64,000 nt of DNA, from positions 1,120,001 to 1,184,000 of the forward strand of contig OZ242184.1 in assembly GCA_965205855.1 (NCBI GenBank). The letters run 5' to 3'. Under the pieces are notes generated by a model. It did no database searches. It saw only the letters and a program-made list of their open reading frames with translations, and was not told where the DNA came from. A program made the translations under genes and the position numbers. Positions 6,917 through 41,292 of this stretch are shown here, piece after piece. Position 1 is the stretch's first letter. The number at the start of each line of letters is the position of its first letter. The DNA is from Thermodesulfobacteriota bacterium. GTDB lineage: Bacteria; Desulfobacterota_D; UBA1144; Nemesobacterales; Mycalebacteriaceae.

Positions 6917-7105
6917 TATTTTCTCCTTATTATTGGGATGTTTTCGGGCAACACACGCACCTTACACAAACAGGCGGGATTTTCAAATCCGCCCCGGACG
7001 CGGCAAAAATACCCCTTTGTTTGCTCTTTGCGGTTGAATCCGCCATTCTCTTACCAACGAATGGCGCGCGGCAGCCTTTCGCATAGATAAGAAAACAGGC
7101 AATGA

Positions 7106-7993: not shown

Positions 7994-8057
7994 GCTTATC
8001 ATGGTCTTATTATATTTTGGTTGGCAGGAGATTAACTGACCCGTGAATCTAGTAAGA

Positions 8058-8330
8058 ATGGGTAATCAAACAAATAACATAACTGCATTAATCAAGAGTT
8101 TTTTTCAAGTTGTAGAAGTAAATATTAGATACAGCTGCAACTAAATTAGCATTTGCTCTTTTGCTTCCCTTTGGATTGTGACTTATCAGCAAATTGGAAA
8201 GTTTAGTGGATGGTTGGAAAGCAAGGCCAAAAGCAAGGAAAGTAGCAAGTACAAATCAGTTCGTTTGTTAGAACCAAAATTAGAACCTCCCAAAAAGTCA
8301 AAACAAAGGCTAAAACCAGAAAAAAAATAG
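8058..8330 (+). pseudogene. AT-rich degenerate ORF of about 90 codons with one internal stop
   Basis: Frame from ATG 8058 to TAG 8330 is broken only by TAA 8142-8144; lies in an AT-rich stretch between convergent genes. Confidence 0.35.
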
Positions 8331-8443
8331 ATGAAGTAATTTGCCTGTTAAAAATTCTCAATAAGTTAGAGGATAAAACAAGAAATATAGATACGGATAG
8401 AAAATTTGAGAATTCAGCTCAGATACGTAATTCTCTCATAAAT

Positions 8444-9244
8444 TCAACGCCCTTTAAAAACGGGCTTTCTTTTTTGAGAAACGGATTTCATCCCCTCTTT
8501 GAAATCGGAGCTTGACTGCGCCCGTTGAATAATATCCCTTACGCTGTCTTCGTCTTCAGGCGCTATTTTGCGGGACTTCTTCAATATGTTTACGCTCCTT
8601 TTGGCGGCCTCAACTGAAAGTGGAGCGTTTCGGGCTATACTATCGGCTATTTTGTAAGTCGTATCCCTCAAAGACTGTCGCGGCACCACTTCGCTTACAA
8701 GACCCATCTCCAGGGATTTTTGCGCCGTAAAAATCTCCGAGGTGAAAAACATACGTTTTGCATTTGAGAAACCCACAGCCCCGACAATCCTTTGAAGCCC
8801 GGAGAACGGGTACGCGATTCCAAGTTTCCCCGGAGGCACGGACATCTTTGAATCATCCGAGCATATGATAAAGTCGCAAGCTACGGCAAGCTCAAGGCCT
8901 CCGCCCATCGCGTAGCCGCAAACCATCGCAATAACAGGACGGGGAAATCTCTCTATCGCATCGCACGCTGTGGCAAGAGGATGGGTTCGCCCGCCGTAGT
9001 CACGCAACATATCGTCGGATTCCAGAAAAGAAAAATCGTATCCCGATGAAAACGCTTTGCCTCCGCGACCCGAAAGCACCACACACCTGACAGACCCGTC
9101 TTTTCCGAATTCTTCAAGCGATGCGACAATCGAGCCAAGCACACCGGGAGAAAGAGAGTTCATTTTCTCCAGCCTGTTGATTTCAAGAGATGCGACCGCT
9201 CCTGACACTTCAACAATTAGCTCAGGGGTAGAAAAAAAATTCAA
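8444..9244 (-). CDS. Enoyl-CoA hydratase/isomerase (crotonase family)
   Basis: AFSSGYD, PVIAMVCGYAMGGGLELAVACD, RKPVFKGR. Confidence 0.92.
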   Translation of the reverse strand: MNFFSTPELIVEVSGAVASLEINRLEKMNSLSPGVLGSIVASLEEFGKDGSVRCVVLSGRGGKAFSSGYDFSFLESDDMLRDYGGRTHPLATACDAIERFPRPVIAMVCGYAMGGGLELAVACDFIICSDDSKMSVPPGKLGIAYPFSGLQRIVGAVGFSNAKRMFFTSEIFTAQKSLEMGLVSEVVPRQSLRDTTYKIADSIARNAPLSVEAAKRSVNILKKSRKIAPEDEDSVRDIIQRAQSSSDFKEGMKSVSQKRKPVFKGR

Positions 9245-9296
9245 AACAAGTACCTTTTAAAAGCCTCAAATATGTGTAGCATTTGATGGTTACATT

Positions 9297-9785
9297 ATGC
9301 CCCTTTATGAGTATGAATGCGAAGAGTGCGTGGACAGGTTCAACAGAGATATATCAAAACTTGTCAAGCAACTCAACAAGAAAACCGCCTCCGGAATTTC
9401 ACGGGAAAACCCCGGGTTTCTCTACATAGAGGTTACAAGAGAAAAAACGGGCGAGAAGGTGTTCTTACTTGGCAAAAAAAGCACTTCGCGATATGTCCGA
9501 AGGTTCAAATACCCTCTTGATCAAGGTAAAATTCTCTATCTTGAACTCAAAGACTTCAAGTTCAGCGAGCTGATGAGTCCGGGCGAAGCCTCTCCGGACT
9601 GTCCGTCATGCGGTGGCAAGGTAAGAAGAATTTTTTCAACATTCAAGGCTATATTTGACAAAAGAGACAGGGAGCCGCGCCCCGGAGATGACATTGGCTG
9701 GCATAAAGACTATAAAATTCAAAAGGATGAAGAACAGCAAAACTGGGTTGGACAGGAGAGCCTAAACCAGCGTTTCAAGGGGTAA
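9297..9785 (+). CDS. FmdB-type zinc-ribbon protein with large inserted domain (paralog 1)
   Basis: MPLYEYECEEC ... FSEL...CPSCGGKVRRIFS; 90 aa between Cys11 and Cys102. Confidence 0.8.
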   Translation: MPLYEYECEECVDRFNRDISKLVKQLNKKTASGISRENPGFLYIEVTREKTGEKVFLLGKKSTSRYVRRFKYPLDQGKILYLELKDFKFSELMSPGEASPDCPSCGGKVRRIFSTFKAIFDKRDREPRPGDDIGWHKDYKIQKDEEQQNWVGQESLNQRFKG

Positions 9786-9789
9786 AAAA

Positions 9790-10272
9790 ATGCCTTTGTT
9801 TGAATACGAATGCGTGCCTTGCAGAAGCACCGTTGAAAAAGCGATCGGGAAGATAATGGACGACCCGGCAAAGAAGTCGGTATCTTCGGTCGTAAAGAGC
9901 AACGACACTGTTAACAGCGTTCAAGTAATAGACCTGAAAAAAGGGAAAGTGGAAACCGAAGCCGGAAAGCCGGGAAAAAACGGACAGGACATTGTTCGTT
10001 ACTCCGATGACGGCTCAAAAATGTTTTGGATAAACACTGTGGTCTTCCGCTTCGCGGAACTGATATATGAAAGCGGTGATGAAAAAAAGGTTAAATGTCC
10101 TTCCTGTAATTCAAAGAAAGCGGAGAAAATTGTGTCATCATTCTCTTTTACAAGCGACCTTTCAACTGATATGCCAAAACCCGATCTCAGCAACTTGCCG
10201 CCGGAAGTCCAAAGCAAATTTCAACTGAAAGGCTACATAGAGGAAAAAGACAGACCAAAGAAAAACAGATAG
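9790..10272 (+). CDS. FmdB-type zinc-ribbon protein with large inserted domain (paralog 2)
   Basis: MPLFEYECVPC ... FAEL...CPSCNSKKAEKIVSSF; 91 aa between Cys11 and Cys103. Confidence 0.8.
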   Translation: MPLFEYECVPCRSTVEKAIGKIMDDPAKKSVSSVVKSNDTVNSVQVIDLKKGKVETEAGKPGKNGQDIVRYSDDGSKMFWINTVVFRFAELIYESGDEKKVKCPSCNSKKAEKIVSSFSFTSDLSTDMPKPDLSNLPPEVQSKFQLKGYIEEKDRPKKNR

Positions 10273-10310
10273 GAGACAGAAAAAAATCCTGAAATTGTCA
10301 GGCTCAATTG

Positions 10311-10339
10311 TTGTCTACAACCAAAATCTGTATTAAGAT
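10311..10339 (+). promoter_or_regulatory. Putative sigma70 promoter of sucAB
   Basis: TTGTCT (10311-10316), 17 nt, TAAGAT (10334-10339). Confidence 0.5.
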
Positions 10340-10374
10340 TGCTTGGCTTTCAAAAAGTGAGAATCGCCACTTCA

Positions 10375-13260
10375 ATGGTTCAGGAAAGTAAAATTTCAAT
10401 GATGCTGGAAGACCTTTTCCACGGCCCCAACTCGGCTGTCGTAGTGGAGTTGCACAACCGCTATATGGAAGACCGTGGGTCCGTTGACCCAGAAGTGCGC
10501 GCGCTCTTTGATGTGTGGAGCCCGTCGGAAAACGGATTGTCCGGAAAAGAAAGTGAAACCTTCAACGATTCCTCAACCGTTGTGGTTGACGCATACGGGA
10601 ACCCCGTGAGCACGGTGGGGGCGGCAAACCTTGCTCTGGCAATACGACTGAACGGTCATCTTGAAAGCATGATAGATCCCCTTGGAAGTCCTCCTCCCGG
10701 AGATGACCTTTTGAAAACTGAATCTCACGGACTGACTGAAAAAGACCTTGAAACGCTTCCACCGTCGCTAATCAGAAGCCCTATTACAAAGAATTGCAAG
10801 AACATTGCGGAAGTTCTGGACAAACTCAGGAAAGTGTATTCATCCTTTTCTGGCTACGATTTTCAACATATCTACTACTCAAACGAAAGGTTATGGATGA
10901 TAAACGCCGCAGAGTCGGGAAAGTTCAGATCACCGAACCAACCTATTGACCTCAAACTGATTCTGGAGCAATTGAGCAAGGTGGAAGCGCTTGAAAGGTT
11001 TCTGCACAAGATTTTTCCGGGCAAATTCCGTTTTTCCATTGAGGGAGTGGACATGCTTGTGCCAATGCTCAACGAGCTTACGTTCCTCTGCTCATACTCG
11101 GGCATCTATCATATAATGCTCGGAATGGCTCACAGAGGGCGTCTTAATGTGATGCACAATGTGATGGACAAGCCCTTTGAACATTTATTGACAACCTTCA
11201 AAGACCCTGTTTATGAAAGGGATTTCAGCGATGACATGGGCTGGACGGGCGATGTCAAATATCATGAAGGAGCAAAAAAACCAATAAAGTTGAATGGAGC
11301 AGGAACCGACTCGGAAGGAATACTGGAAATATTTCTGGCTCCCAACCCAAGCCACCTTGAATCGGTTAATCCCGTAATACAGGGGATGGCGCGCGGAGCA
11401 GGAACCAAGTCTTTGTCACCCGGAACTCCGACATTTGACCGGATGTATTCGCTACCCGTAATTGTCCACGGAGACGCAGCGTTTCCGGGACAGGGAATAA
11501 ACGCCGAAACAATTAACCTGTCTTTAATACCCGGATACGACACGGGAGGAACCCTTCACATAATAACCAACAACCAAATCGGCTACACAACCAATCCCAT
11601 GGAAAGCAGAAGCACTCTCTATTCAAGCGACCTTGTAAAAGGCTTTGAGGTGCCGATAATCCATGTCAACGCCGATGAGCCCGAAGCCTGCATAGAGGCG
11701 ATAAGAATAGCCTTCGCTTATATAAGTAAGTTTAACAAAGACTTTCTGATAGACCTTGTAGGTTACCGCCGCCACGGACATAATGAGGGAGACGAGCCCG
11801 CATTCACTCAGCCGCTTCTCTATGAGAAAATTAAAAACCACCCGACCGCAAGAGAAAAACTCGCCGAAGACTGTGTGAACAGGGGCATTATGGAAAAAAC
11901 GGCGGCGGACGAGCTGTTCGCAAAGCATAACGAAGTATTGGCAAAGGTTTTTGAAACTTTTTCAAAAAAAACCGAAGGTTTTGAAGACAATTCCGCTGTC
12001 CCGAAACCGAGGACGGCGACAAAGGCAAAAACTGCGGTCGTAGCGGCAAGACTGAAAGAGATACACAGATCCCTTCTTGAACTTCCGGACGGTTTTTCCG
12101 TTAACTACAAAATAGAGAAAATTCGCGAGAAAAAACGCGCCTCCCTGAAAGACATGAAAACTCATTCCATAGACTGGGCTGTTGGAGAAGAGCTCTGTTA
12201 CGCTTCAATCCTTGCGGACGGAACTCCCATAAGACTTACGGGCCAAGACTGCCAAAGGGGCACTTTCAGCCACAGGCACGCCGTGTTGCATGACATGAAT
12301 TCCGAAGAAAAATACGTGCCCCTTCAAAGCATTCCACAGGCGAAAGCGGGTTTTGAGATTATCAACAGCCCTCTGACTGAAAATGCGTGCATAGGTTTTG
12401 AATACGGATACAGCATACAGAGACCCGACACACTCGTAATCTGGGAGGCACAATACGGAGACTTCATAAACGGAGCGCAGCCACTGATAGACGAATACCT
12501 GGTCTCGGCGAGGTCCAAATGGGGACAGTACTGTTCCCTTGTATTGCTGTTGCCTCACGCCTACGAAGGTCAGGGTCCCGACCATTCCAGCGGACGGCTT
12601 GAAAGATTTCTCAATATGGCGGCGAAGAAGAACATCAGGGTGGTAAACTGCACGCGCTCGGCACAGTTTTTCCATGTTATAAGAAGACAGGCTGCGGTTC
12701 TGGAAACCGACCCGCTTCCACTTATCGTGATGACCCCGAAAAGTCTGCTCAGAAATCCGCTTGTTTCATCGTCTCTGAGAGAATTTTCCACGGGAGGTTT
12801 TATGCCGGTGATAGACGACCCCGTAAATGACAGGGATGCGGGCAAAGTCCACAGGGTAATTCTCTGCAGCGGCAAAGTGGCGATAGACCTTGAGATGTCA
12901 GAGTCCAGAAAAAAACATCCCGAAGTGGCGGTAATCAGAGTTGAGCAACTTTACTATCCGCCGGTCGATGAGATGGAATCCGCGATAGACAGATACGGCG
13001 GTGCGAAGGAGATAGTCTGGCTTCAGGAGGAGCCCCTGAACATGGGAGCATGGGGATTTATGAATTCTATTCTGCGCCGAATCGCGCGGGCGAAAAACCT
13101 TCCTCTTTCCCTCATAGCAAGAAAACGCAACTCAAGCCCCGCGGAAGGCTTTATGTCAATGCATAAAGTTAACCAATCTATTCTCATCAAGCAGGCTTTC
13201 AGCGCACTTGCTGTGGATAAAATTGAAAAAAGCGGCGTGATAATGGAAACGGATGTTTAA
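10375..13260 (+). CDS. sucA: 2-oxoglutarate dehydrogenase E1
   Basis: GMAHRGRLN, GDVKYH, NPSHLE, HGDAAF.GQG, WEAQYGDF, GPDHSSGRLERFL; exact start uncertain (ATG 10375 chosen, downstream of the promoter). Confidence 0.96.
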   Translation: MVQESKISMMLEDLFHGPNSAVVVELHNRYMEDRGSVDPEVRALFDVWSPSENGLSGKESETFNDSSTVVVDAYGNPVSTVGAANLALAIRLNGHLESMIDPLGSPPPGDDLLKTESHGLTEKDLETLPPSLIRSPITKNCKNIAEVLDKLRKVYSSFSGYDFQHIYYSNERLWMINAAESGKFRSPNQPIDLKLILEQLSKVEALERFLHKIFPGKFRFSIEGVDMLVPMLNELTFLCSYSGIYHIMLGMAHRGRLNVMHNVMDKPFEHLLTTFKDPVYERDFSDDMGWTGDVKYHEGAKKPIKLNGAGTDSEGILEIFLAPNPSHLESVNPVIQGMARGAGTKSLSPGTPTFDRMYSLPVIVHGDAAFPGQGINAETINLSLIPGYDTGGTLHIITNNQIGYTTNPMESRSTLYSSDLVKGFEVPIIHVNADEPEACIEAIRIAFAYISKFNKDFLIDLVGYRRHGHNEGDEPAFTQPLLYEKIKNHPTAREKLAEDCVNRGIMEKTAADELFAKHNEVLAKVFETFSKKTEGFEDNSAVPKPRTATKAKTAVVAARLKEIHRSLLELPDGFSVNYKIEKIREKKRASLKDMKTHSIDWAVGEELCYASILADGTPIRLTGQDCQRGTFSHRHAVLHDMNSEEKYVPLQSIPQAKAGFEIINSPLTENACIGFEYGYSIQRPDTLVIWEAQYGDFINGAQPLIDEYLVSARSKWGQYCSLVLLLPHAYEGQGPDHSSGRLERFLNMAAKKNIRVVNCTRSAQFFHVIRRQAAVLETDPLPLIVMTPKSLLRNPLVSSSLREFSTGGFMPVIDDPVNDRDAGKVHRVILCSGKVAIDLEMSESRKKHPEVAVIRVEQLYYPPVDEMESAIDRYGGAKEIVWLQEEPLNMGAWGFMNSILRRIARAKNLPLSLIARKRNSSPAEGFMSMHKVNQSILIKQAFSALAVDKIEKSGVIMETDV

Positions 13261-13284
13261 AAAGAAAAAAAGACGGAGGACAAA

Positions 13285-14517
13285 ATGGCAACATCAATAT
13301 TAGTGCCCGAACTCGGCGACTCGGTTATTGAGGCGACGGTTGTAAAATGGCTCAAACAGGAAGGAGACCCTGTCAACACGGGAGAAACCATAGTTGAACT
13401 TGAGACAGAAAAGGCGAATTTTGAAGTTCCCGCCATAACAAGCGGAGTGATCGCCGAGATTAGCAAACAAGAGGGAGACGAAGTGAAAGTGGGAGACCCC
13501 CTTGGCGCGATAGATGAATCCGCGAAAACTGAACCGGTCGCCGTATCGGAAAAAGAAGACACTCCCTCGGAGAGAGAAACGGCAAAGCCTGAGAAAACAG
13601 CGCCTCCAAAAGCGAAGACCGGGGAGCGCTCAACCCCGGTTGCGAGAAATATTGCTCGCAATAAAAACATAGACCTGTCATCGGTCAATCCAAGCGGTGA
13701 AGGTGGACGCATAATGAAAACTGATGTTGAAGAAGTCGCGCACAAGGCGGCACCGACGACTCCCGCAAAAGAACCCGATATTGAAAGCGGTATTTTCCCA
13801 TCGCTTTCCGCATTGCACCGCAGAGATAAAAGGGTAAAGATGACCCCGCGCCGCAAAACCATAGCGCGGCGCTTGCTTCAAGCTCAGCGCGACGCCGCGA
13901 TTCTCTCCACTTTCAACGAAGTAGACATGGGAGCCGTTATGGACCTTCGCAAAAGACGCAAAGACAACTTCAAGGAGAAATACGGAGTGTCGCTCGGAAT
14001 GTCGTCATTCTTCATCAAAGCCTCGGTTGGAGCTCTTAAAGCTTTTCCGCAGGTCAATTCCGAAATTCAGAAAGACGAGATTATCTACAAGCACTTTTAC
14101 GACATAGGAGTGGCGATAGGAGCCTCAAGCGGATTGGTTGTGCCGGTAATACGCGAGGCGGATAAAAAGAGTTTTGCCGAGATTGAAAAAGAAGTCAGAG
14201 ATTTCGCCGTAAAAGCCGAAGAAGGAAAATTGAAAATCGATGAGATTATCGGAGGAACTTTTTCCATAACCAACGGCGGTGTTTTCGGCTCCCTGCTGAG
14301 CACTCCGATACTGAACCCCCCACAGGTCGGAATACTCGGACTTCACGCTATTAAACAGAGACCGGTTGTCGTGGACGGAGAAATTGCCATACGTCCCATA
14401 ATGCTTGTCGCTCTCAGTTACGACCACAGAGTTGTGGACGGAAGGGAAGCGGTTCAGTTTCTTGTCAAGCTCAAGGAGCTTGTGGAAGACCCGGAATCCC
14501 TTCTCGTGGAAGGATAA
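13285..14517 (+). CDS. sucB: Dihydrolipoamide succinyltransferase E2
   Basis: Lipoyl domain ELETEKA, E3-binding domain, SYDHRVVDG. Confidence 0.96.
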   Translation: MATSILVPELGDSVIEATVVKWLKQEGDPVNTGETIVELETEKANFEVPAITSGVIAEISKQEGDEVKVGDPLGAIDESAKTEPVAVSEKEDTPSERETAKPEKTAPPKAKTGERSTPVARNIARNKNIDLSSVNPSGEGGRIMKTDVEEVAHKAAPTTPAKEPDIESGIFPSLSALHRRDKRVKMTPRRKTIARRLLQAQRDAAILSTFNEVDMGAVMDLRKRRKDNFKEKYGVSLGMSSFFIKASVGALKAFPQVNSEIQKDEIIYKHFYDIGVAIGASSGLVVPVIREADKKSFAEIEKEVRDFAVKAEEGKLKIDEIIGGTFSITNGGVFGSLLSTPILNPPQVGILGLHAIKQRPVVVDGEIAIRPIMLVALSYDHRVVDGREAVQFLVKLKELVEDPESLLVEG

Positions 14518-14530
14518 AAAACGCGGATTA

Positions 14531-16918
14531 TCAATTGCCGCCGGAAAAACGGCTTAGAATCCCAAGAGCCAGCTTTTTGAGTTCGGGATAATTTTTCAAC
14601 TCCGGATCGTTGCTGACAATTTTGTCCGCACTTTTACGCGCCTCCGAAAGAGCACCGGTATCCATCACAAGGTCGGCAAAGTGAAAGTCCGGAATTCCGG
14701 ACTGCTTAGTGCCAATAAACTCACCGGGCCCCCTCATTGCCAAATCCTTTTCAGCAATGGAAAAACCGTCCGAGCTTTTACTCAAGATTTCCAGTCTTTG
14801 CTCTCCTTCGGAAGAAATTCCCACTGATTTCAAAAGAATACACACAGACTTGCCGGTTCCGCGCCCCACCCTGCCTCTCAACTGATGAAGCTGCGAGAGT
14901 CCGAATCTATCAGCGTTTTCAACCGCTACCAAAGTCGCGTTCGGAACATCAATTCCAACCTCAACAACCGTTGTGGAAACAAGAACATCCGTCTCTCCGC
15001 GGGAAAAAGCGTCCATAATTGAATTTTTTTCTTCCGCCACCATCCTTCCGTGCAGAACCGATACCCGCGCGCCGGGAATATCTTTTCTCAAGACTTGTGC
15101 CGTTTCGGAAACTCGCGCGATGTCACCGGTTTTCGTGTCACCCGTGTCTTCCATGTTGTCGGACTCCCGGTCTATAAGCGGACAGACAATATAACACTGC
15201 CTGCCCGCTTCTATTTCCGCGTTCATTCTTTTAATCATTTTCTCTCTGTCGCGGGAGGAACTTCCAAGAAGCAGGGTTTCAATTTTTTTTCTTCCGCGCG
15301 GGAGGCTGCCAATCAACGCGACTTCCAAATCTCCGTAAACAGTCATGGCAAGAGAGCGGGGAATCGGAGTCGCGGTCATAACAAGTATGTCGGGAAAAAA
15401 ACCTTTGGCTCTCAGTTTCTCCCTCTGGGCAACTCCGAATTTATGTTGTTCGTCAACTACTGCGAGGCCGAGACGCTTGAATTTGACCCTGTCATACAGG
15501 AGCGCGTGCGTTCCGACCACAATTCCTGCTTCTCCGTTCGCAACACCTTCAAGACTTGCACCGGAGTCTCCTCCTTTCAGCATGACCATCTTTACCCCCA
15601 GCGCGGCGGCGTACGGTGATATAAACTTCGCATGTTGTTCGGCAAGAATCTGTGTCGGTGCCATTAAAACCGTCTGATATCCGGAATCAAGAGCCTTCAT
15701 CATCGCCTGAAGAGCCACCACCGTTTTTCCGCTTCCCACATCACCCTGAAGAAGCATATTCATCGAGGTTGGGCTTTCCATACGCTCGCGTATAAGGGAG
15801 AAAGCTTCGTTTTGAGCGCCTGTAAGCCTGAAGGGGAGTTCGCTTAAAAAACGGCGCGACAGCTCCCCTTCGGGTTTGAACGCCAACCCTCCGGATTTTT
15901 CACGATTGCGTTTACTGATTTCTATCGCAATTCTCAGAAGAAAAAACTCAAAAAAAGCCACAGTTCTCGGAGCGGGAAGCTCCCTGTCGCGTCCGCCCGC
16001 CTCCCACGCCCTTTGTGAAAAATCCGAGCATCTGTCCATAGTCACGGGAAAGTGCATCTCTTTTACCGCACCCGGGAGGGAAATAAGCCCGGGCGCGCAT
16101 CCTTCGGGCAAAATCCCGTCAAGCAAGGACGAATGTTCGGCGACATTTTTCATAATCCCCCTCAGGCGTCTTTGGCTAAGCCCGTCGGTCAATGCATAGA
16201 CAGGCACAATACGGTTGATATGTGGGCTGTTTTTTGCTTCATCCGCTTTGTCAAGAACTTCAACCCCGTCAGCCGCCGGATGTACGATCTGCAAATTCCG
16301 GCGGCGCGAATCCTCTCCTATGTCGCCGCTAACCAGTACCAGTTTTCCCTTCTTGTATTTGTTCCTCATATATCTTTCATCAAAATGAAACCACACAAGG
16401 TCAAGAGTCGTGTCTTTTTCCTTCAAAACAACTCTAAACTGCGCGCTGGCGCCGCGCCGTGTCCTCCCGGCATACTCCACCCTGCCGGACACGGTCTGCC
16501 ACCTGTTCGGCACGGCGGAGGAGACACCCATGATGTTTCTCCTGTCTTCATAACGGAAAGGAAAATAAAACAGCGCGTCCCAGACTGTGTAAACATTCTT
16601 TTTTGCCAGAAAGGAGGAAAGCGAAGAGCCCACTCCGGCAACTGTGTCAACCGAATCGGAAAGAGCCTTCGGCCGCGACCCCGGCTTTGTTGAAACGGTA
16701 TTGTGAAAATGAGATGCGACCGCGCTTATCCTGTCCGCACAGGTTCGCAAAACTTCCATTTTCTCCGAACCGGAAAGTGTGTCAAAACCCTGAAACAAAA
16801 CCCTGACGGATTTCAATTCCTCCGAAATATCTCCGGGAGGAGCTGTGGAAAGAATCTTGCGGAAAACAGAGTCCACGTTGCCTTCAAAACCGCTTGAAAA
16901 CCTCGCAAGGTAAGGCAT
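14531..16918 (-). CDS. recG: ATP-dependent DNA helicase RecG
   Basis: LQGDVGSGKT, DEQHKFG, MTATPIPR, QLHQLRGRVGRG, RGPGEF.G; start uncertain (ATG 16918, or slightly upstream near the topA end). Confidence 0.95.
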   Translation of the reverse strand: MPYLARFSSGFEGNVDSVFRKILSTAPPGDISEELKSVRVLFQGFDTLSGSEKMEVLRTCADRISAVASHFHNTVSTKPGSRPKALSDSVDTVAGVGSSLSSFLAKKNVYTVWDALFYFPFRYEDRRNIMGVSSAVPNRWQTVSGRVEYAGRTRRGASAQFRVVLKEKDTTLDLVWFHFDERYMRNKYKKGKLVLVSGDIGEDSRRRNLQIVHPAADGVEVLDKADEAKNSPHINRIVPVYALTDGLSQRRLRGIMKNVAEHSSLLDGILPEGCAPGLISLPGAVKEMHFPVTMDRCSDFSQRAWEAGGRDRELPAPRTVAFFEFFLLRIAIEISKRNREKSGGLAFKPEGELSRRFLSELPFRLTGAQNEAFSLIRERMESPTSMNMLLQGDVGSGKTVVALQAMMKALDSGYQTVLMAPTQILAEQHAKFISPYAAALGVKMVMLKGGDSGASLEGVANGEAGIVVGTHALLYDRVKFKRLGLAVVDEQHKFGVAQREKLRAKGFFPDILVMTATPIPRSLAMTVYGDLEVALIGSLPRGRKKIETLLLGSSSRDREKMIKRMNAEIEAGRQCYIVCPLIDRESDNMEDTGDTKTGDIARVSETAQVLRKDIPGARVSVLHGRMVAEEKNSIMDAFSRGETDVLVSTTVVEVGIDVPNATLVAVENADRFGLSQLHQLRGRVGRGTGKSVCILLKSVGISSEGEQRLEILSKSSDGFSIAEKDLAMRGPGEFIGTKQSGIPDFHFADLVMDTGALSEARKSADKIVSNDPELKNYPELKKLALGILSRFSGGN

Positions 16919-33650: not shown

Positions 33651-34448
33651 ATGCGGCTTGTTGACAGATTTGACGCCTTTCTCATAGATATTGACGGCAC
33701 GGTGGTATCGGGAGAAAAACCTGTTGCGAAATCCAAAAACTCTCTGCGGAAACTGCGTAAAACGGGAAAGCCCTTTCTGTTTGTAACAAACAACGCGCGG
33801 CTCACGCCTGCGAAATGGGCAACTCGGCTTGAGAAAACCGGAATAGAGGCGAAACCGGATGAAGTTGTAACATCGGCAAATTCAACCGCGGATTTCATAA
33901 AACGGAAATATAAAAACCCCGAATTAAAAAAAGCGTTTGTATCGGGCAGTGTCGCGCTTGTTTCCGAGGTAAAGAAAACCGGAATTAAACTTATAAAACC
34001 CGATGAGGTTTGTGGCGGATGCGATCTTGTAATAATCGGCGGACATCCGGGTTTCGGGTATGCGGATATTGCTACGGCGGGAACCGCGATAATAAACGGC
34101 GCGGAGTTTATTGCGACAAATTCAAATTTTGTCTATCCGGCGGGGGATGGAAGATTTATGCCCGCAACTGGGGCGCTTGCGGCGGCTATAGAAAAAGTTT
34201 CAGGGAAAAGGCCAGTAATTACGGGGAAACCGCATCGGGGGATTTTCAGAATGTGTCTGGAGATTCTCGGTGTGCCAGCAGATAAAATGGCGGTTGTTGG
34301 AGACAGTTTGAAAACTGATATAAAAGGCGGAAAACAGGCGGGGGTTAAAACTGTTCTTACGCTTACGGGGATTTCATCGCGGGAAGATGCGGGAAAGTTT
34401 CGGTATAAGCCGGATTATGTGATTGGGGATTTGAGTGGGTTATTTTGA
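33651..34448 (+). CDS. HAD-IIA hydrolase (NagD-like)
   Basis: DIDGT, VTNNA, GKP, VGDSLKTDI..G, LTGIS. Confidence 0.92.
   Translation: MRLVDRFDAFLIDIDGTVVSGEKPVAKSKNSLRKLRKTGKPFLFVTNNARLTPAKWATRLEKTGIEAKPDEVVTSANSTADFIKRKYKNPELKKAFVSGSVALVSEVKKTGIKLIKPDEVCGGCDLVIIGGHPGFGYADIATAGTAIINGAEFIATNSNFVYPAGDGRFMPATGALAAAIEKVSGKRPVITGKPHRGIFRMCLEILGVPADKMAVVGDSLKTDIKGGKQAGVKTVLTLTGISSREDAGKFRYKPDYVIGDLSGLF
34293..34448 (+). repeat. Direct repeat copy 1 (native 3' end of the HAD gene, ends TGA)
   Basis: 156 nt; 143/156 identical to 37145-37300 by hand alignment; last 36 nt also match 36308-36343. Confidence 0.95.
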
Positions 34449-34512
34449 GAAGTTAGTATTATATACTAGATAGCAGTCGTTTCTGGTAGAATTCACTTAT
34501 CGGGAGAATTTG

Positions 34513-35700
34513 ATGAAAATTGAAAATTTAAAACTAAAAAATTTTAAGGCTTTTCGTAACACAGAAATGACTAACCTGCCTGGTTTCTGCGTTATAGTCG
34601 GTGCCAACGGTAGTGGCAAAAGTACTATCTTCAGTGTGTTTGGGTTCTTGCGCGATGCAATGAATGCAAATGTTAATACAGCACTGACACGCCTTGGAGG
34701 TAGTAAGGGCTTTCAAGAGGTGCGAAGTCGTAAATCTGATGGTCCAATCGGAATTGAATTGAAGTTCCGTAAGGAAAGTGGAAGCCCACTGATAACATAC
34801 TATCTTGAGATTAATGAGAAGGATGGAAACGCCTTTGTGCAAAGAGAACTGCTTAAATATAGACGAGGAAGTCACGGACAACCATGGCGTTTTCTAGACT
34901 TCAACAATGGAAGTGGCATGGCAGTTACCAATGAACTTGATGAAGTTCGGCAGGATAGTGATTTAAAGCGAGAAGAACAGAAACTCAAATCCAATGACAT
35001 TCTTGCAATTAAGGGACTTGCACAATTTGAAAAGTTTCCAGCCGTTGTAGCGCTGGGAAATCTGATTGAGCGTTGGCATATTTCTGATTTTCATATTAGT
35101 AAAGCAAGACCTGAACAAGAAGCCGGTTATGCCGAACATCTTTCACGAGAAGGAGAAAATCTCTCTCTGGTTGTAGAATATTTACACAATCATCACCAAA
35201 AAATATTTATTCAAATTCTTGAGTCACTGAAAAATCGAGTTCCCGGAATTTCCAATGTTGAATCAAAAACTACTGAAGAAGGCAGAGTATTATTAAAATT
35301 TCAAGATGGTGCCTTTGAAGACCCGTTTCTTGCACGCTATGTGTCAGACGGCACAATTAAAATGCTTGCTTATTTAACTCTGCTCTACGACCCTGCTCCC
35401 CATGACTTACTTTGCGTTGAAGAGCCAGAAAATCAGCTTTATCCTAAATTACTAGATGAACTGGCTGAAGAATTCAGAGGATATGCTGAACGAGGTGGTC
35501 AAGTGTTTGTTTCCACACACTCTCCAGATTTTTTAAATGCCACTAAATTGGACGAAGTTTTCTGGTTGGAAAAACAGGGTGGTTATACTGCAATTAAAAG
35601 AGCATCAAAGGATGGGCAAGTCAAGAGATATATGCAAGACGGTGACAAGATGGGTTATCTTTGGAAAGAAGGCTTTTTCGGAGATGTAAACCCGAAATGA
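34513..35700 (+). CDS. ABC-type (AAA_21/OLD-like) ATPase
   Basis: LKNFKAF, GANGSGKS, SDGT signature, VEEPENQLYP, STHSP; AT-rich. Confidence 0.9.
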   Translation: MKIENLKLKNFKAFRNTEMTNLPGFCVIVGANGSGKSTIFSVFGFLRDAMNANVNTALTRLGGSKGFQEVRSRKSDGPIGIELKFRKESGSPLITYYLEINEKDGNAFVQRELLKYRRGSHGQPWRFLDFNNGSGMAVTNELDEVRQDSDLKREEQKLKSNDILAIKGLAQFEKFPAVVALGNLIERWHISDFHISKARPEQEAGYAEHLSREGENLSLVVEYLHNHHQKIFIQILESLKNRVPGISNVESKTTEEGRVLLKFQDGAFEDPFLARYVSDGTIKMLAYLTLLYDPAPHDLLCVEEPENQLYPKLLDELAEEFRGYAERGGQVFVSTHSPDFLNATKLDEVFWLEKQGGYTAIKRASKDGQVKRYMQDGDKMGYLWKEGFFGDVNPK

Positions 35701-36257
35701 GGACTCTTGCTTGTTTCCTTGAGGAACCTTCGGCACAAGAAATGTTGAAAGGTATTTTACCTCGTCTCTTACCCGAAGATATTTATGTTCGCTATATTAT
35801 ATTTGAAGGCAAACAAGACTTAGACAAAAAAGTTGAACGGAAACTTAGGAGTTGGTTAAAGCCAAATTCACTATTTTTAATAATGAGAGATCAAGACATG
35901 AATGATTGTAGAGATATTAAGCAATCTCTAATGCAGAAAATTCATAAAAGCAAAAAGTCTAATTCTGCTTGTTGCGTAAGAATTGCATGTCACGAACTGG
36001 AAAGCTTCTATCTTGGAGATTTAGATGCTGTAAAAAATGGACTTGCAATTAACAATATACAAACAAGCTACTCAGACCCCGACAGCATACAAAACCCTTC
36101 TCAACTATTGAAAAAAATAACTCGTAACAAATATAAAAAAATTGCTGGCTCAAGAAAAATTGCACACTATCTCAATCTGGATGGCAGGAATTGCTCCAGA
36201 AGTTTCAATGCTCTACTATATGGATTGAGAACACTAACAAATATAACTCTCTATTAA
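35697..36257 (+). CDS. DUF4276-like protein (TOPRIM/RloB-like nuclease partner)
   Basis: FLEEPSA, FEGKQDL, RDQD, ELESFYLGD, SRSF; ATGA-coupled to the ATPase. Confidence 0.8.
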   Translation: MRTLACFLEEPSAQEMLKGILPRLLPEDIYVRYIIFEGKQDLDKKVERKLRSWLKPNSLFLIMRDQDMNDCRDIKQSLMQKIHKSKKSNSACCVRIACHELESFYLGDLDAVKNGLAINNIQTSYSDPDSIQNPSQLLKKITRNKYKKIAGSRKIAHYLNLDGRNCSRSFNALLYGLRTLTNITLY

Positions 36258-36307
36258 TCTTTGCAGAAATTTCATTGAAGACACAAAGAGGCTTCATTAT
36301 AAACATA

Positions 36308-36343
36308 GATTATGTGATTGAGGATTTGAGTGGGTTATTTTAG
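36308..36343 (+). repeat. Direct repeat copy 2 (36-nt copy of the HAD 3' end, ends TAG)
   Basis: gattatgtgattgaggatttgagtgggttattttag; 33/36 identical to 34413-34448. Confidence 0.9.
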
Positions 36344-36348
36344 AAATA

Positions 36349-36570
36349 TCAGGATTTTGTAAATTCAGATCTGGACAATCTGGTTTTTCTTATAATGGAT
36401 TTTAGAGTGCCTACGGGTATGTCTTTTGACTTGCGGGGAACAGTAACCTCTATCCCGCTTTTGGCATGAACATATGTAAAATGACTTCCTTTTGTCCGGT
36501 CAAGTCTAAACCCGTTATTCATAAGGATTTCCCTAACCTTGAGGAAAGGCAGAGGTCTCAGTTTGCTCAA
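36349..36570 (-). CDS. hicA: HicA-family toxin (mRNA interferase)
   Basis: GF..R.KGSH...H...VTVP...IPVGTLKSIIR. Confidence 0.88.
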   Translation of the reverse strand: MSKLRPLPFLKVREILMNNGFRLDRTKGSHFTYVHAKSGIEVTVPRKSKDIPVGTLKSIIRKTRLSRSEFTKS

Positions 36571-36824
36571 CTGTTAAGATCCAGAGGTATTATCTTTCTG
36601 ACACTATCCAGAGGAATTGTCAGGTCTGGTTGAATCGCATTCGTAATCACTTTTCCAATATCTTCACCGGAGGCGCCGGAAATGTGCAATTCCACGGCTT
36701 CTTTCAGACTGTCAACTGCTTCCTCGACTGTCTCCCCATAACTGGAAACATCTACATTAAGGCATTGAGATACAAAAACATCTTCTTCCTGCCAAACTGC
36801 AATATCAATAACAACTTTTTCCAT
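36567..36824 (-). CDS. hicB: HicB-family antitoxin (short form)
   Basis: SQC..VSSYGETVEEAVDSLKEAVEL; TTGA overlap with hicA. Confidence 0.85.
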   Translation of the reverse strand: MEKVVIDIAVWQEEDVFVSQCLNVDVSSYGETVEEAVDSLKEAVELHISGASGEDIGKVITNAIQPDLTIPLDSVRKIIPLDLNS

Positions 36825-36876
36825 TAACTCACCTCTTACTATAGGGAAGGAATTATAGTTTCCATCTGTGTAAGTG

Positions 36877-37149
36877 TCAAAGTTTCAGATACACGTTATA
36901 CATCTCAAACCGTAAGCCAGCCTTCAAAAAATCTGACTCCATTTTCCTTTCACAAAGCAAATACAACTTCTCTTTTGCTCTCGTCATTCCCACATAAAAT
37001 AGTCTTTGCTCCTCTGCCAACACTTTGGCAGGTGTTGAACCAAAAATCTCATTAAGGCTCTCATCAGGATGTATAAGCGGATACTCCCCTTGATTAACAC
37101 AAAGCATAATTACAATATCTGCTTCAAGTCCCTTAAAACTGTGTGTTGT
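36877..37149 (-). pseudogene. C-terminal fragment of a UvrD/HelD-like helicase
   Basis: TTHSFKGLEADIV (motif V) and EEQRLFYVGMTRAK (motif VI); the upstream part is replaced by repeat copy 3. Confidence 0.85.
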
Positions 37150-37300
37150 TGGAGACAGTTTGAAAACTGATATAAAAGGCGGAAAACAGGCGAGGATTAA
37201 AACTGTTTTTACGCTTATGGGAATTTCATCGCGGGAGAATTCTGGAAAGTTTCGGTATAAGCCGGATTATGTGATTGAGGGTTTGAGTGGGTTGTTTTAA
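37145..37300 (+). repeat. Direct repeat copy 3 (156-nt copy of the HAD 3' end, ends TAA)
   Basis: First 48 nt identical to 34293-34340; no indels; about 92% identity overall. Confidence 0.95.
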
Positions 37301-37348
37301 GAACGACGACTCCAAATCTTCTCCATAAATAGATTTAAACCTGAAATG

Positions 37349-40039
37349 TCAATGTGTCGGCAGACTTTCTGTGTAAGAACACTTTGCAACACTATTATAT
37401 TGAGAACAACCTAAAAACTCCCCATAACTACCTGTTTTTCTTTCCAAAACACCCTTTCCACACTGCGGGCAAATTTTGTACTTAAGCCCACAAAAGCATA
37501 TATAAGACTTGTTACTATCCAGCTCATTTAAGTCAACGGCAGCGTCACATCCTTCATTTGTACAAATTGGCAAAACACCATTACATAAGGGCCAATGTGA
37601 ACAACCATAGAAATATTTGCCATCATTGGTTGGTTTTTTTTGAATTGTTTGCCCCTTACACTCAGGGCAGAACAGTATCATTGATACTGCATTCTTCTCT
37701 ACATCAACAAAAGGTTCGTATACACCTTTACTTTCCTCCATTTTTCCCCTTGTATCTGCACGCGGTTCTATTTCCTTAATGAATTTGGACGCTTTCCCAG
37801 TTGGCACAAGTAGAAACACACCTTGTCGTGTACGAGTAACTGCAACGTAGAAAAGCCGTCTCTCTTCCGCGTTCGGGTAACTGTCATTATCCGGCAATAT
37901 CATTCTTAAAACTGGGTCATCTTGGACTTCAGACGGAAACCCCAAACCATCTGGATCTGATTTGTTTTCAAGTATGACAACCCAATCACTTTCTCTGCCT
38001 TTCGACTTGTGAATTGTGCTGAATTCCATGTCAACCTCATTTGATTTGGCGTATTGCGTAATCTCTCTCCACCTAACAGGCTTGTTGTAATTGTAGCGCC
38101 CCAGAACAAAACATTTATGTGTTTTTTGCCCCGATTGGCTGACAATATAATCAACAACTTTATCAAATGCTTTCTTGTATTCCATTGGTTCGTGGTAAAT
38201 AATTTTTATTGGCCTATCTTCATCTTTGGAAGCAATGCTTGATTTAATATCTTTGTTTAATTGTGCTGGATTTTGCGTGATAAAGGTGCTACTAAAATCA
38301 CTAACTTTTTGAGGGTATCGAAATGTTTGGTCTAAATCAGTACGTTGCATTGCATCCACATAATTTTCAAAGCCTGTAATCAGGCTTACATTTGCGCCTT
38401 GAAATTGGTAAATAGATTGCCAATCATCACCAACGCAGAATAATCTGGCATTTTCTACCTGACTTTGTAGGGATAACAAGAACTCCAAACGAACCTTTGT
38501 TATGTCTTGATATTCATCCACCAGAATATATTTATAGTTAGATTGATATTTTCCATTTTTTACATATTCCATGCCATGAACAATCATATCAGTAAAATCT
38601 ACTTCGTCATCAGATTGCAATTTATCTTCATAGAATTTCCTCAGAATATTAAATATCAGTAAAAACGCTCGGTCTCTAATAGAAACTGAACTTTCTTCAA
38701 GTTTTTGTTTGTCTAATTTGTTTTCTCTACATAAAGAGAGAAACCGTACAACCAGTTTAATAAAATTGGGAATGGGCTTGAATCTATTTTCTACAATTTG
38801 GTTAATAGTTTTATTAGATATTTGCCGTTTTTTCACACCATAATTCACTAGTTTCTCTTCAAGAGATTTTGTCAATCCACCATTCTTTTTTGTTTCGTAA
38901 CTGTATGTTTCTACAAGACGGGTTTTATTCTGCTTGTGTATATTACGTTTCCACTCAATTCCTTCATTATATTCTTTTTTATTAACATAAGGGGCGGTAT
39001 TGCCATGCTCGTCAATGCCAAAGTGTTCAACCCATATATTATATTCCGGTAAATAAAAATCCGGTTTGTATTGTTTTTTGCTTTCGTTATGTGGGTAGTC
39101 CCGTTCGTATTCCCATTCTATACCATTCAGAATCAACCAGTTCGCAATCGCAACTTCCTGGCGACTTTTGAGTTTGCTACCATCAAGACTCCTAAGTTCA
39201 AAAGGGCTAATCCTGCTAAGATATTCATCTTTGGTTTTCACTCCCTTCTCCAGATCTCCTTCAAATTGGGAAGCAGTAAAGAAATTTATAAGCAAATCAT
39301 TGGTGGAGTTACTTTTGAACAATTCCTTTATTTTTTCAATAAAAAAACCTCCCATTTTCCTTTCATCATCTGCAAAACTGCTTATGACAACTTGGGTGCT
39401 TTCAGTCTCTCGCATAATCTCAAGACCGAGAGAATGGAATGTCGTAACTTTGATATCAGAGGATATTTTTTCAATTTTTTCCTCTATCTCCTCTTGGATT
39501 TTTTTATTGTAAACAACAATCAAAATTTCAGCAGGTTTTGCCAAATTCCACTCAAAAATATATTGAATTTTACCGAGTATGGTCCGAGTCTTACCAGAAC
39601 CCGCACCGGCATTAACTAAATTGGCATCTTCATCTCTTACAACAGCAAGCCGTTGAGATTCTGTCAACCCCAGACTGTCAAACAATTTCCCGGACTCTTC
39701 CAGACGCTTCCGAACAAATTGTTTGTTAATTTCATACGATAGACCATTCTGTCTTGCCTTGAGATAAGACAGACGCAAACTTTCATCAAAAAGGTCGGGA
39801 TTTATTAATGAATGGTCAAAAGTTTTTATATAAACGCCTTCACGCGAATTCAGCCATTTTTGCACTTTTGCGTTATTTAGGTATTCACCACCGGCAAGTC
39901 TTTCAAGTTTCGCTTTGGCATTTTCAAATAAAGTCAAAAAAGATTTTGCATATTTGGCGGATTTTTCTCTTTTTTTTCTTTTATGAAGAAAGTAGAGCGT
40001 AGTAATGGAAACTGCTACGACAACAATCAAACTAAACAT
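37349..40039 (-). CDS. UvrD/helicase IV-like SF1 helicase with N-terminal TM segment, inserted PD-(D/E)xK-like domain and C-terminal zinc ribbons
   Basis: AGAGSGKT, VDEYQD, VGDDWQSIY, TIHKSKG, ERRLFYVAVTR; KSRQE..IANWL..YE..PDFYL...VEHFG; CPEC/CPQC ribbons; AT-rich. Confidence 0.9.
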   Translation of the reverse strand: MFSLIVVVAVSITTLYFLHKRKKREKSAKYAKSFLTLFENAKAKLERLAGGEYLNNAKVQKWLNSREGVYIKTFDHSLINPDLFDESLRLSYLKARQNGLSYEINKQFVRKRLEESGKLFDSLGLTESQRLAVVRDEDANLVNAGAGSGKTRTILGKIQYIFEWNLAKPAEILIVVYNKKIQEEIEEKIEKISSDIKVTTFHSLGLEIMRETESTQVVISSFADDERKMGGFFIEKIKELFKSNSTNDLLINFFTASQFEGDLEKGVKTKDEYLSRISPFELRSLDGSKLKSRQEVAIANWLILNGIEWEYERDYPHNESKKQYKPDFYLPEYNIWVEHFGIDEHGNTAPYVNKKEYNEGIEWKRNIHKQNKTRLVETYSYETKKNGGLTKSLEEKLVNYGVKKRQISNKTINQIVENRFKPIPNFIKLVVRFLSLCRENKLDKQKLEESSVSIRDRAFLLIFNILRKFYEDKLQSDDEVDFTDMIVHGMEYVKNGKYQSNYKYILVDEYQDITKVRLEFLLSLQSQVENARLFCVGDDWQSIYQFQGANVSLITGFENYVDAMQRTDLDQTFRYPQKVSDFSSTFITQNPAQLNKDIKSSIASKDEDRPIKIIYHEPMEYKKAFDKVVDYIVSQSGQKTHKCFVLGRYNYNKPVRWREITQYAKSNEVDMEFSTIHKSKGRESDWVVILENKSDPDGLGFPSEVQDDPVLRMILPDNDSYPNAEERRLFYVAVTRTRQGVFLLVPTGKASKFIKEIEPRADTRGKMEESKGVYEPFVDVEKNAVSMILFCPECKGQTIQKKPTNDGKYFYGCSHWPLCNGVLPICTNEGCDAAVDLNELDSNKSYICFCGLKYKICPQCGKGVLERKTGSYGEFLGCSQYNSVAKCSYTESLPTH

Positions 40040-40044
40040 ATCCC

Positions 40045-41292
40045 CTACCCTTTTCTAACTTCCTCCTGGTTCCTCAACCCAACCTTCGGTGCCTGCACAA
40101 GAACCGCCATTTTCCCCGAATGCTTATTCTCAAGCATATTCTGGTGCGCAAGCGGAATATCCTTATATTCAAAAACTTCCGAAATCACCGGATTTATAAT
40201 CCCCTTCTCAACAAGCGCGTTTGCGCGAATGCACTCGAGCGCATTCGCAAAATGTGAGCCGAGAATTTTTTTCTGGTGCATCCACAGATAGCGCACATCA
40301 AACGAGCAGTCATAACCCGTTGTTCCCGCGCAAATTACAATCCTTCCGAAACGGTTGCACACAAAAACGCTTGTCGGAAAAGTCCCCTCTCCGGGATGCT
40401 CAAAAACAACATTGGGGTTTTTTCTCTCCCCCATAATCTCCCAAATCGCCTTGCCGAATTTCTTTGTGTCGTCCAACCGCTCTTTTTTACGCTCCGGGCT
40501 TTCGTCCTTTGAATACATCAGTTTCGGAAAGTTTTTTCTGTTAATCGCCCCCTTCGCACCGAGTTCCACGCACATCTTCGCCTTTTCTTCGGAGGAGACA
40601 ACCGCGATTGCGTCCGCGCCCATCATTTTGCAGATCTGTATCGCAAACACTCCGAGCCCTCCGGCACCGCCCCAGATAAGAGCAAGCTCTCCGGGCTGAA
40701 TGTCGCACTGTGAAACCAGCATTCTGTAGGCGGTGAAATAGCAAAGCCCGTATGAAGCCGCCTCCTCCCATGTGAGATGGGCGGGTTTTGAGAGAATCTG
40801 CTGCGCCTGAACGCATGTGAACTGCGCAAACGAGCCGTTTGGGGTTTCGTATCCCCAAATCTGGTCTCCGGGACTTGCCATCGGGTCGTATGTTACAAAA
40901 TCCGCCGCGCTCTTTGTGCGTCTGGCATGCGAATAGTCCTCAACGTTGCAGTGGATAATCACCTCATCGCCCGGTTTCCAGCTTTTGACCTCGCTTCCTA
41001 CAGCCCAGACAATTCCCGCGGCATCGCTACCCGCTATGTGAAAATCCTGCTTGTGAATATCAAGAACCGACACCGGCTCTCCGAGACCCGCCCAGACGCC
41101 GTTGAAGTTGACGCCCGCCGCCATTACAAGAACAAGAACCTCGTCCGGCCCCGGCTTCGGAACAGCAATGGTCTCCTCCTGAAACGACTTCATCGGCTCA
41201 CCGTGCCGCTCCTTGCGTATAACCCATGCCTTCATCTTCTCAGGCATTTCCCCGATTTCGGGGAGAGTTCCCATTTCTATTGTTTCAGCCAT
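40045..41292 (-). CDS. ccr: Crotonyl-CoA carboxylase/reductase
   Basis: VMAAGVNFNGVWA, HIAGSDAAG, IWGYETP.GSFAQF, FEHPG, RYLWMHQK..GSHFAN. Confidence 0.93.
   Translation of the reverse strand: MAETIEMGTLPEIGEMPEKMKAWVIRKERHGEPMKSFQEETIAVPKPGPDEVLVLVMAAGVNFNGVWAGLGEPVSVLDIHKQDFHIAGSDAAGIVWAVGSEVKSWKPGDEVIIHCNVEDYSHARRTKSAADFVTYDPMASPGDQIWGYETPNGSFAQFTCVQAQQILSKPAHLTWEEAASYGLCYFTAYRMLVSQCDIQPGELALIWGGAGGLGVFAIQICKMMGADAIAVVSSEEKAKMCVELGAKGAINRKNFPKLMYSKDESPERKKERLDDTKKFGKAIWEIMGERKNPNVVFEHPGEGTFPTSVFVCNRFGRIVICAGTTGYDCSFDVRYLWMHQKKILGSHFANALECIRANALVEKGIINPVISEVFEYKDIPLAHQNMLENKHSGKMAVLVQAPKVGLRNQEEVRKG

Follow-up and report, generated by a model that had tools for sequence, protein, structure and literature searches.

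The window analysed here is a 64,000-nucleotide stretch of a Thermodesulfobacteriota genome (contig OZ242184.1, positions 1,120,001 to 1,184,000), in which a gene for a HAD-family phosphatase and a gene for a ccr-like reductase face each other across an interval of low G+C content. Within this HAD-ccr interval the 3' end of the HAD gene is present three times in direct orientation, once as the native gene end and twice as an orphan, and a different set of genes follows each copy. The source genome (G000) is a single contig of 1.40 Mb and carries the locus at ~1,154,000; locus features are given in window coordinates, and G001 to G005 denote five genus relatives. The interval is organised as follows.

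33651..34448, + strand: HAD-family phosphatase gene (Hydrolase_6, presumably NagD-like; Pfam PF13344/PF13242), left core flank and proposed homology anchor
34293..34448, + strand: copy 1, the functional HAD 3' end, which retains residues conserved across 29 orthologues
34398..34425, + strand: weak dif-like 28-mer inside the HAD end, with a second occurrence at 37250-37277 in copy 3
34513..35700, + strand: cargo 1a, ABC/AAA_21 ATPase of HEC-01 (PADLOC HEC-01, E 2e-199)
35697..36257, + strand: cargo 1b, DUF4276 (TOPRIM-like) HEC-01 partner (Pfam PF14103; PADLOC HEC-01, E 4e-69), with an ATGA overlap with cargo 1a
36308..36343, + strand: copy 2, orphan HAD 3' end of 36 nt, 33/36 identical to copies 1 and 3
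36349..36570, - strand: cargo 2a, hicA toxin gene of a bacterial toxin-antitoxin (TA) pair (Pfam PF07927)
36567..36824, - strand: cargo 2b, hicB-like antitoxin gene (weak Pfam PF24113/PF15919, below cut-off)
36852..36880, - strand: perfect sigma-70 consensus (12/12) upstream of hicB, a predicted promoter by consensus match only
36877..37144, - strand: cargo 2c, C-terminal 88 amino acids (aa) of a UvrD-type helicase (Pfam UvrD_C), the 5' part removed by copy 3
37145..37300, + strand: copy 3, orphan and apparently decaying HAD 3' end of 156 nt, 143/156 identical to copy 1
37349..40039, - strand: cargo 3, intact 896-aa UvrD helicase with an inserted nuclease-like segment and a Topo Zn ribbon (Pfam/PADLOC)
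40045..41292, - strand: ccr-like zinc-dependent reductase gene (Pfam ADH_N/ADH_zinc_N), right core flank, convergent with HAD; the name ccr is that of the first-pass annotation

The three copies had been described in that annotation, which was made from the letters alone, and their coordinates, identities, shared peptide and stop codons were all reproduced. Copy 3 aligns with copy 1 without indels (34293-34448 versus 37145-37300), and copy 2 corresponds to the last 36 nt of copy 1. All three encode DYVI(G/E)(D/G)LSGLF and end in TGA, TAG and TAA, respectively. Similarity had been placed as ending at or near the stop, and the BLASTN match indeed continues for only 3 nt beyond it. The right ends of the copies therefore coincide at the stop (+3 nt); the left ends lie 120 nt apart, and inserts of 1.9 kb and 0.8 kb separate successive copies. 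BLASTN aligns copy 2 over 39 nt at 94.9% with one gap, hence its TAG may represent a one-base deletion of the end of copy 1. When the interval was resampled 500 times, no 36-nt match exceeded 24/36, compared to 33/36 observed. No further HAD-end copy was found elsewhere in the 1.40-Mb genome, and none of the three copies carries a terminator-like site.

Each copy is followed by distinct AT-rich cargo, as had been noted: the HEC-01 ATPase with its DUF4276 partner, hicBA with a cut helicase, and the 896-aa helicase, with G+C content dropping from ~0.48 to 0.30-0.41 across the interval. The identity of cargo 1 as HEC-01 rests on the ATPase adjoining a TOPRIM-like partner, with both PADLOC models matched. 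HEC-01 is itself a candidate system, for which the source paper, in its accessible part, detected no defence (10.1101/2024.01.29.577857). The term defence is thus a family-based label for these blocks, their function being predicted. The nearest full-length relatives of the cargo 2c fragment are 37-46% identical; among 100 further genomes of the order, 8 carry them, and the five genus members none. The -35 box of the predicted hicBA promoter contains or overlaps the stop codon of this fragment. At its other end, a TGTTGT sequence shared with copy 3 had been claimed as the junction. This could not be demonstrated: the corresponding motif is T-V-H in 6/7 homologues examined and S-I-H in one, compared to T-T-H in the fragment, which indicates the helicase sequence most likely stops at 37144, with any overlap interrupted.

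Variation of the interval among relatives

The HAD-ccr interval is a variable, integrase-free hotspot between two conserved convergent genes. HAD was matched in 41/41 genomes searched and ccr was found in 6/6 genus genomes. The distance between them measures 5.6 kb in this genome; in G005, G001, G002 and G003 it is 5.1, 4.8, 3.8 and 1.1 kb, respectively, while the contigs of G004 break at both interval edges. A check proposed with the first-pass annotation was that the cargo should vary between strains, and at genus level it differs in all four contiguous intervals (G001, G002, G003 and G005). The annotation had also reported the interval to be free of integrase, transposase, tRNA and attC-like hairpins. 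Family scans of the cargo proteins gave no integrase or transposase match, the nearest tRNA lies at 44130, outside the interval, and a relaxed hairpin scan of 34200-40200 gave 0 hits, compared to 15 strand hits in the integron region found elsewhere in this genome.

In G005, hicBA (68% nt identity) directly follows the HAD stop and an orthologue of the cargo 3 helicase (73.7% nt) sits beside ccr. HAD and ccr are 74.6% and 88.4% nt identical to their G005 counterparts. The ccr-adjacent helicase has thus diverged from G005 like the core gene HAD, suggesting that the ccr-proximal block is the oldest. The arrangement in G005 also bears on the idea that each unit of gene end plus cargo derives from another allele of the hotspot: unit 2 does resemble such an allele, since hicBA adjoins the HAD end there as well. 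Copies 2 and 3 may either stem from other alleles or have diverged in situ. A HEC-01 pair 78% nt identical to cargo 1 is present in G001 at an unrelated locus (L103, G001:C1:470000-471800), where no flanking repeat was found.

A comparable scar is seen in the interval of G003 (L032, G003:C1:1100780-1101820), in which a TA-like pair and a hicB relic lie between two decayed 3' ends of an ACT-domain gene. These ends give a match of 30/39, compared to at most 28 in 200 resamples. The interval of G003 no longer holds the ACT gene they come from, which follows HAD in G002 and G004. In both of these (L033, L034) it is accompanied by a 390-aa gene that we take to be pyridoxal phosphate decarboxylase-like. 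The G004 contig ends within the last codons of the ACT gene, and ccr of G002 is split by a frameshift.

Gene-end repeats at other loci of the genome

A search for similar gene-end duplications had also been proposed, and two further loci were found. We probed both ends and the middle of 921 open reading frames (ORFs) of 150-1499 aa, looking within 15 kb for copies on the same strand. Hits that came from an insertion sequence pair, from pairs of paralogues, from a non-coding repeat or from spurious ORFs lying in repeats were removed by hand. This left three genes whose 3' end has orphan copies downstream: HAD, a thpR-like phosphoesterase gene and a Type IIG restriction-modification (R-M) gene. 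No orphan 5' gene end was detected in this survey; the lone 5' hit (652,944) is the 3' end of a neighbouring small gene copied upstream. Each of the three stacks has two extra gene ends with low-GC cargo between them.

In the thpR-like stack (G000:C1:934854-938827; L111:4855-8828), the two orphan copies are 100% identical to each other over 164 nt and 91-94% identical to the native end, and the cargo comprises a membrane protein, a Type II R-M pair and an IS1380-type remnant. The Type IIG stack (G000 1,386,758-1,389,476; side region to 1390532, L112) belongs to a gene of 1204 aa, the 3' end of which is repeated twice (48 and ~112 nt) around a 561-aa ATPase. It is followed by arrays of 110-nt REP-like repeats and is convergent on pgk. 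None of the five relatives' loci fetched for these two sites has a gene-end repeat; the pgk-fba site is nearly empty in G001-G003 and holds other cargo in G005.

Other local direct repeats of 60-83 nt are present in the genome (G000:C1: 652944-653014/654361-654431, 30586-30668/40182-40264 and 631471-631531/639994-640058). Two of them overlap gene 3' ends but sit upstream of the intact gene.

Proposed origin of the stack and alternatives

We propose that the stack arose by sequential displacement, in which DNA is inserted with a long duplication of the target, by host recombination anchored in HAD together with an illegitimate joint, and give this reading a probability of roughly 0.6. Donor DNA from a relative, carrying HAD and its own cargo, would recombine by RecA in HAD or upstream of it, and the far end of the donor would be joined illegitimately within the recipient HAD 3' end. 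Alternatively, the donor piece may have been circularised at such a joint and integrated by a single crossover, with the same sequence outcome. In either case the donor HAD end would become the working one, and the recipient tail and its cargo would be pushed to the right. A first round would have placed hicBA and the cut helicase before an existing HAD end-helicase-ccr arrangement, leaving copy 3. A second would have placed HEC-01 before that array, leaving copy 2. The newest block would then adjoin HAD and the oldest, the helicase common with G005, would adjoin ccr. The orphan ends would be scars that subsequently decay, and it is possible that hicBA with its consensus promoter counteracts deletion of the block that copies 1 and 3 enclose.

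One homologous and one illegitimate joint lead to right ends fixed at the core/variable border and to variable left ends. The homology is one-sided, with the similarity border at the core/variable boundary (stop +3) and the ccr 3' end repeated in 0/5 intervals. The first-pass annotation had invoked homology-anchored, microhomology-resolved recombination, and its first element fits the geometry, in which right ends are constant, left ends vary and the cargo is truncated on its right side. For the 3-10 bp of microhomology expected at an illegitimate joint, the helicase homologues point to an interrupted overlap at most. Since joints to the right of the stop leave no repeat, the restriction of the pattern to 3' ends is partly a matter of ascertainment. 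The genome encodes recA, dprA and comEC. In the assay of homology-facilitated illegitimate recombination (HFIR), as far as the available text of the report describes it, the anchor was partially duplicated, over 109-950 bp, in 56/60 clones (PMC3240628).

The state of copy 3 is consistent with a scar. Judged on 29 orthologues, it carries replacements at near-invariant residues, including G231R (G in 28/29), L236F (L in 29/29) and D260G, as well as T239M at a position where only S or T occurs. Polarisation of the coding differences between copies 1 and 3 on the five genus orthologues identified five private to copy 3, with all five orthologues agreeing. The longest perfect blocks shared by the two copies are 48 and 34 nt. 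Hence, the sequence suggests that copy 3 resembles an old scar more than a maintained site, with decay no more than suggestive.

A number of observations weigh against this proposal. Approximately 4/12 coding differences are private to copy 1, with the rest not clearly polarised, and the pN/pS ratio (non-synonymous to synonymous differences) of 0.61 between the copies, compared to 0.18-0.22 between functional orthologues, is not a significant decay signal on its own (Fisher p 0.18). The HAD end is repeated in 0/4 contiguous intervals of relatives. Metagenome and genome-contig searches found neither a conspecific genome nor an empty site, so donor, recipient and order are inferred: a single-protein metagenome scan gave 0 relatives, an alignment-based metagenome scan gave 57 loci with 1 above 44% identity, and the genome-contig search gave 4 loci, 3 of them genus-level. 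No microhomology is demonstrable at either joint. As comEC and dprA also match in 10-11/14 control genomes, they are weak evidence of competence. Furthermore, HFIR is reported, in the text available, to be rare and usually to delete recipient DNA (PMC3240628).

The polarity could also be the opposite, with ccr as the homology anchor, donors ending inside HAD, the orphan ends being donor tips and the newest block adjoining ccr. The final sequence would be identical, of the two flanks ccr is better conserved (88% nt identity to G005, against 75% for HAD), and the cut helicase would correspond to deleted recipient DNA, as is typical of HFIR in the accessible account (PMC3240628). We nevertheless consider this improbable, given that the ccr-adjacent helicase is as diverged from G005 as HAD and that copy 3 is the more decayed copy, both of which argue for an old right block.

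The first-pass annotation favoured a live cassette array, in which the gene-end copies are kept as reusable anchors and RecA adds, swaps or excises blocks. It is true that two blocks share one right border, that three such stacks occur in one 1.4-Mb genome, and that the thpR-like orphan pair, 100% identical over 164 nt, implies an orphan end can be re-duplicated recently. However, copy 3 has drifted to 92% identity, conserved residues included, and is left with only short perfect blocks, and a crossover in the first of these would introduce G231R, L236F, T239M and D260G into HAD. The role of the copies as reusable anchors is thus not borne out, and a live array appears unlikely.

Contigs from 4 of the 9 listed runs (X1, X3, X4 and X5) were compared with the locus, also for signs of excision; X1 may be the source sample. 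The predicted deletion product between copies 1 and 3, i.e. a joint skipping the middle block, is not listed in the contigs of the four runs, which drop rare variants and cannot resolve repeat-mediated deletion. In X1 the middle block has a depth of 373.8, compared to 361.2 and 362.8 for the flanks. The middle is likewise not below the flanks in X5, where coverage is patchy, and contig depth gives no share of cells. It is lower in X3 (46.7 vs 72.1 and 212.4), where the flanks themselves differ threefold, and in X4 (~3 vs 11-21), where coverage is patchy. The pieces listed for X3 include no copy-3-specific contig, an absence that bubble removal would account for.

A broader version of this idea holds that, in this small-genome lineage, additive stacking behind gene 3' ends is a routine way of acquiring defence genes across the genome, with orphan ends acting as standing sites at which host RecA alone would add, swap and drop blocks, a functional analogue of integrons that lacks an enzyme of its own and is polymorphic within populations. 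We regard this as a long shot that is compatible with the thpR-like pair of 100% identity and with the finding of four stacks across two genomes.

Site-specific integration is still less likely. Either XerCD would have to recombine the dif-like word found within the HAD end, or the gene end would have to serve as attB for an integrase that has been lost or is distant. In elements that XerCD integrates at dif (IMEX, pdif modules), every joint carries a dif-like site of 28 bp. A dif-like 28-mer is indeed located at 34398-34425, and copy 2 starts inside its 6-nt spacer. The site is weak in copies 1 and 3, though, and only a half site in copy 2, while the copy 3 joint lies 105 nt upstream of it. 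By hand count, its arms match the genome's own dif at 5/11 and 7/11 positions, the loose motif RTAA-N6-TTATG occurs 43 times in the genome, the 28-mer is not kept in the 4 relatives compared, and the thpR-like and Type IIG repeats lack the motif. The 28-mer is probably incidental to the YKPDYV codons. A fixed crossover core common to all copies (attL/attR-type) is absent, as the left ends lie 120 nt apart.

The genome does encode three tyrosine recombinases (at 303,009, 389,349 and 915,020), all far from the locus, and gave no resolvase match. One of them, of 321 aa, opens an integron-like region (G000:C1:302997-320000), in which numerous short ORFs follow with attC-like hairpins between them. 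An IntI acting in trans on the HAD-ccr interval was rejected, no attC-like hairpin being present there, and 0 viral contigs carry the HAD gene end. Elsewhere, a 5.9-kb low-GC element (G000:C1:703979-709868) with 553-aa and 453-aa ORFs is flanked by two direct dif-like sites, and presumably resembles a microvirus prophage integrated at dif. This element may likewise be counted on the side of site-specific integration.

That an assembly chimera of strain variants produced the repeats can practically be dismissed. No single listed contig spans the whole stretch; the middle contig extends 30 nt into copy 3, one below the 31-nt bridging rule. In X1, however, the copy-1-specific (362.6) and copy-3-specific (364.6) contigs are each at full depth and the 48-mer common to both is at 694, which is as expected for two copies per genome, whereas strain variants would divide the depth. 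In addition, the middle contig (2779 nt) is found without differences in X3, another sample, and the left joint of copy 2 is spanned by a contig obtained in a second study (X4 record 21, 36082-36339).

Relation to known systems

Insertion with long target duplication was reportedly recognised by Nobusato in 2000. As defined in the available text of a later survey, it concerns R-M cargo with no other mobile element, mostly in competent species (Furuta 2010, PMC2853133). The present locus shares with that class, so far as the text describes it, inserts of <20 kb, direct repeats of >30 bp and variable length (36 and 156 nt here), the lack of another mobile element, and repeats that in some cases overlap a gene 3' end (PMC2853133). 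It is not a member as defined there, since the accessible definition requires R and M genes and a single insert compared to an empty site. By contrast, this locus carries HEC-01, hicBA and helicases, with two inserts stacked and the repeats diverged, and the genus relatives have one HAD end with other cargo.

A parallel in process is that of Vibrio cholerae type VI secretion system (T6SS)/Rhs arrays, for which anchor-plus-illegitimate displacement with orphan 3' ends has been proposed, and which the part of the report available likens to integrase-free integrons (Kirchberger 2017, PMC5361080). There, too, an upstream homologous anchor is paired with a downstream illegitimate joint, and the newest unit stands in front with older ones pushed back. 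In contrast, the displaced gene in those arrays, as described in the same excerpted text, is an effector and immunity genes are selected, while here it is the tail of a housekeeping gene that is combined with unrelated defence-type modules (PMC5361080).

Hotspots of horizontal gene transfer free of mobile genetic elements likewise have variable cargo between core genes, no integrase and recombination in the flanks (Oliveira 2017, PMC5635113). The double homologous replacement of that model, in the portion of the paper accessible, leaves no repeats, whereas additive events left gene-end copies here (PMC5635113). In the additive flexible genomic islands of Alteromonas, too, cassettes are stacked, and a directly repeated portion of the target gene marks them. 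Their targets, according to the text at hand, are mostly tRNA/tmRNA genes and the process is called site-directed, unlike the protein-coding gene and unequal repeats of this locus (PMC4898812). As in integrons, single-function blocks are stacked with the newest apparently at a fixed core site; unlike integrons, there is no intI nearby and no attC, and the cargo lies on both strands, has its own promoter and is truncated.

A literature search, largely of openly available papers, yielded no account of defence-type blocks stacked between the 3' ends of a housekeeping gene. The locus looks like a well-kept instance of gene gain by a known route that needs no integrase, and it stands out by its anchor, cargo and recurrence, although the process is not new in kind; present evidence reveals no new enzyme or element there. 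Many gene-transfer hotspots lack mobile elements, and gene addition at these, as opposed to swapping, is mostly inferred. The HAD-ccr interval preserves a readable record of two additive events. With the scar recurring at three sites in this genome and again in a relative, orphan 3' ends are usable as a searchable mark, which could flag one-sided (anchor plus illegitimate joint) acquisition of defence genes and their order of arrival.

As a separate observation, this 1.4-Mb genome also contains giant repetitive ORFs (1,700-12,400 aa), clustered at G000:C1:456877-585631 and 6216-15107.

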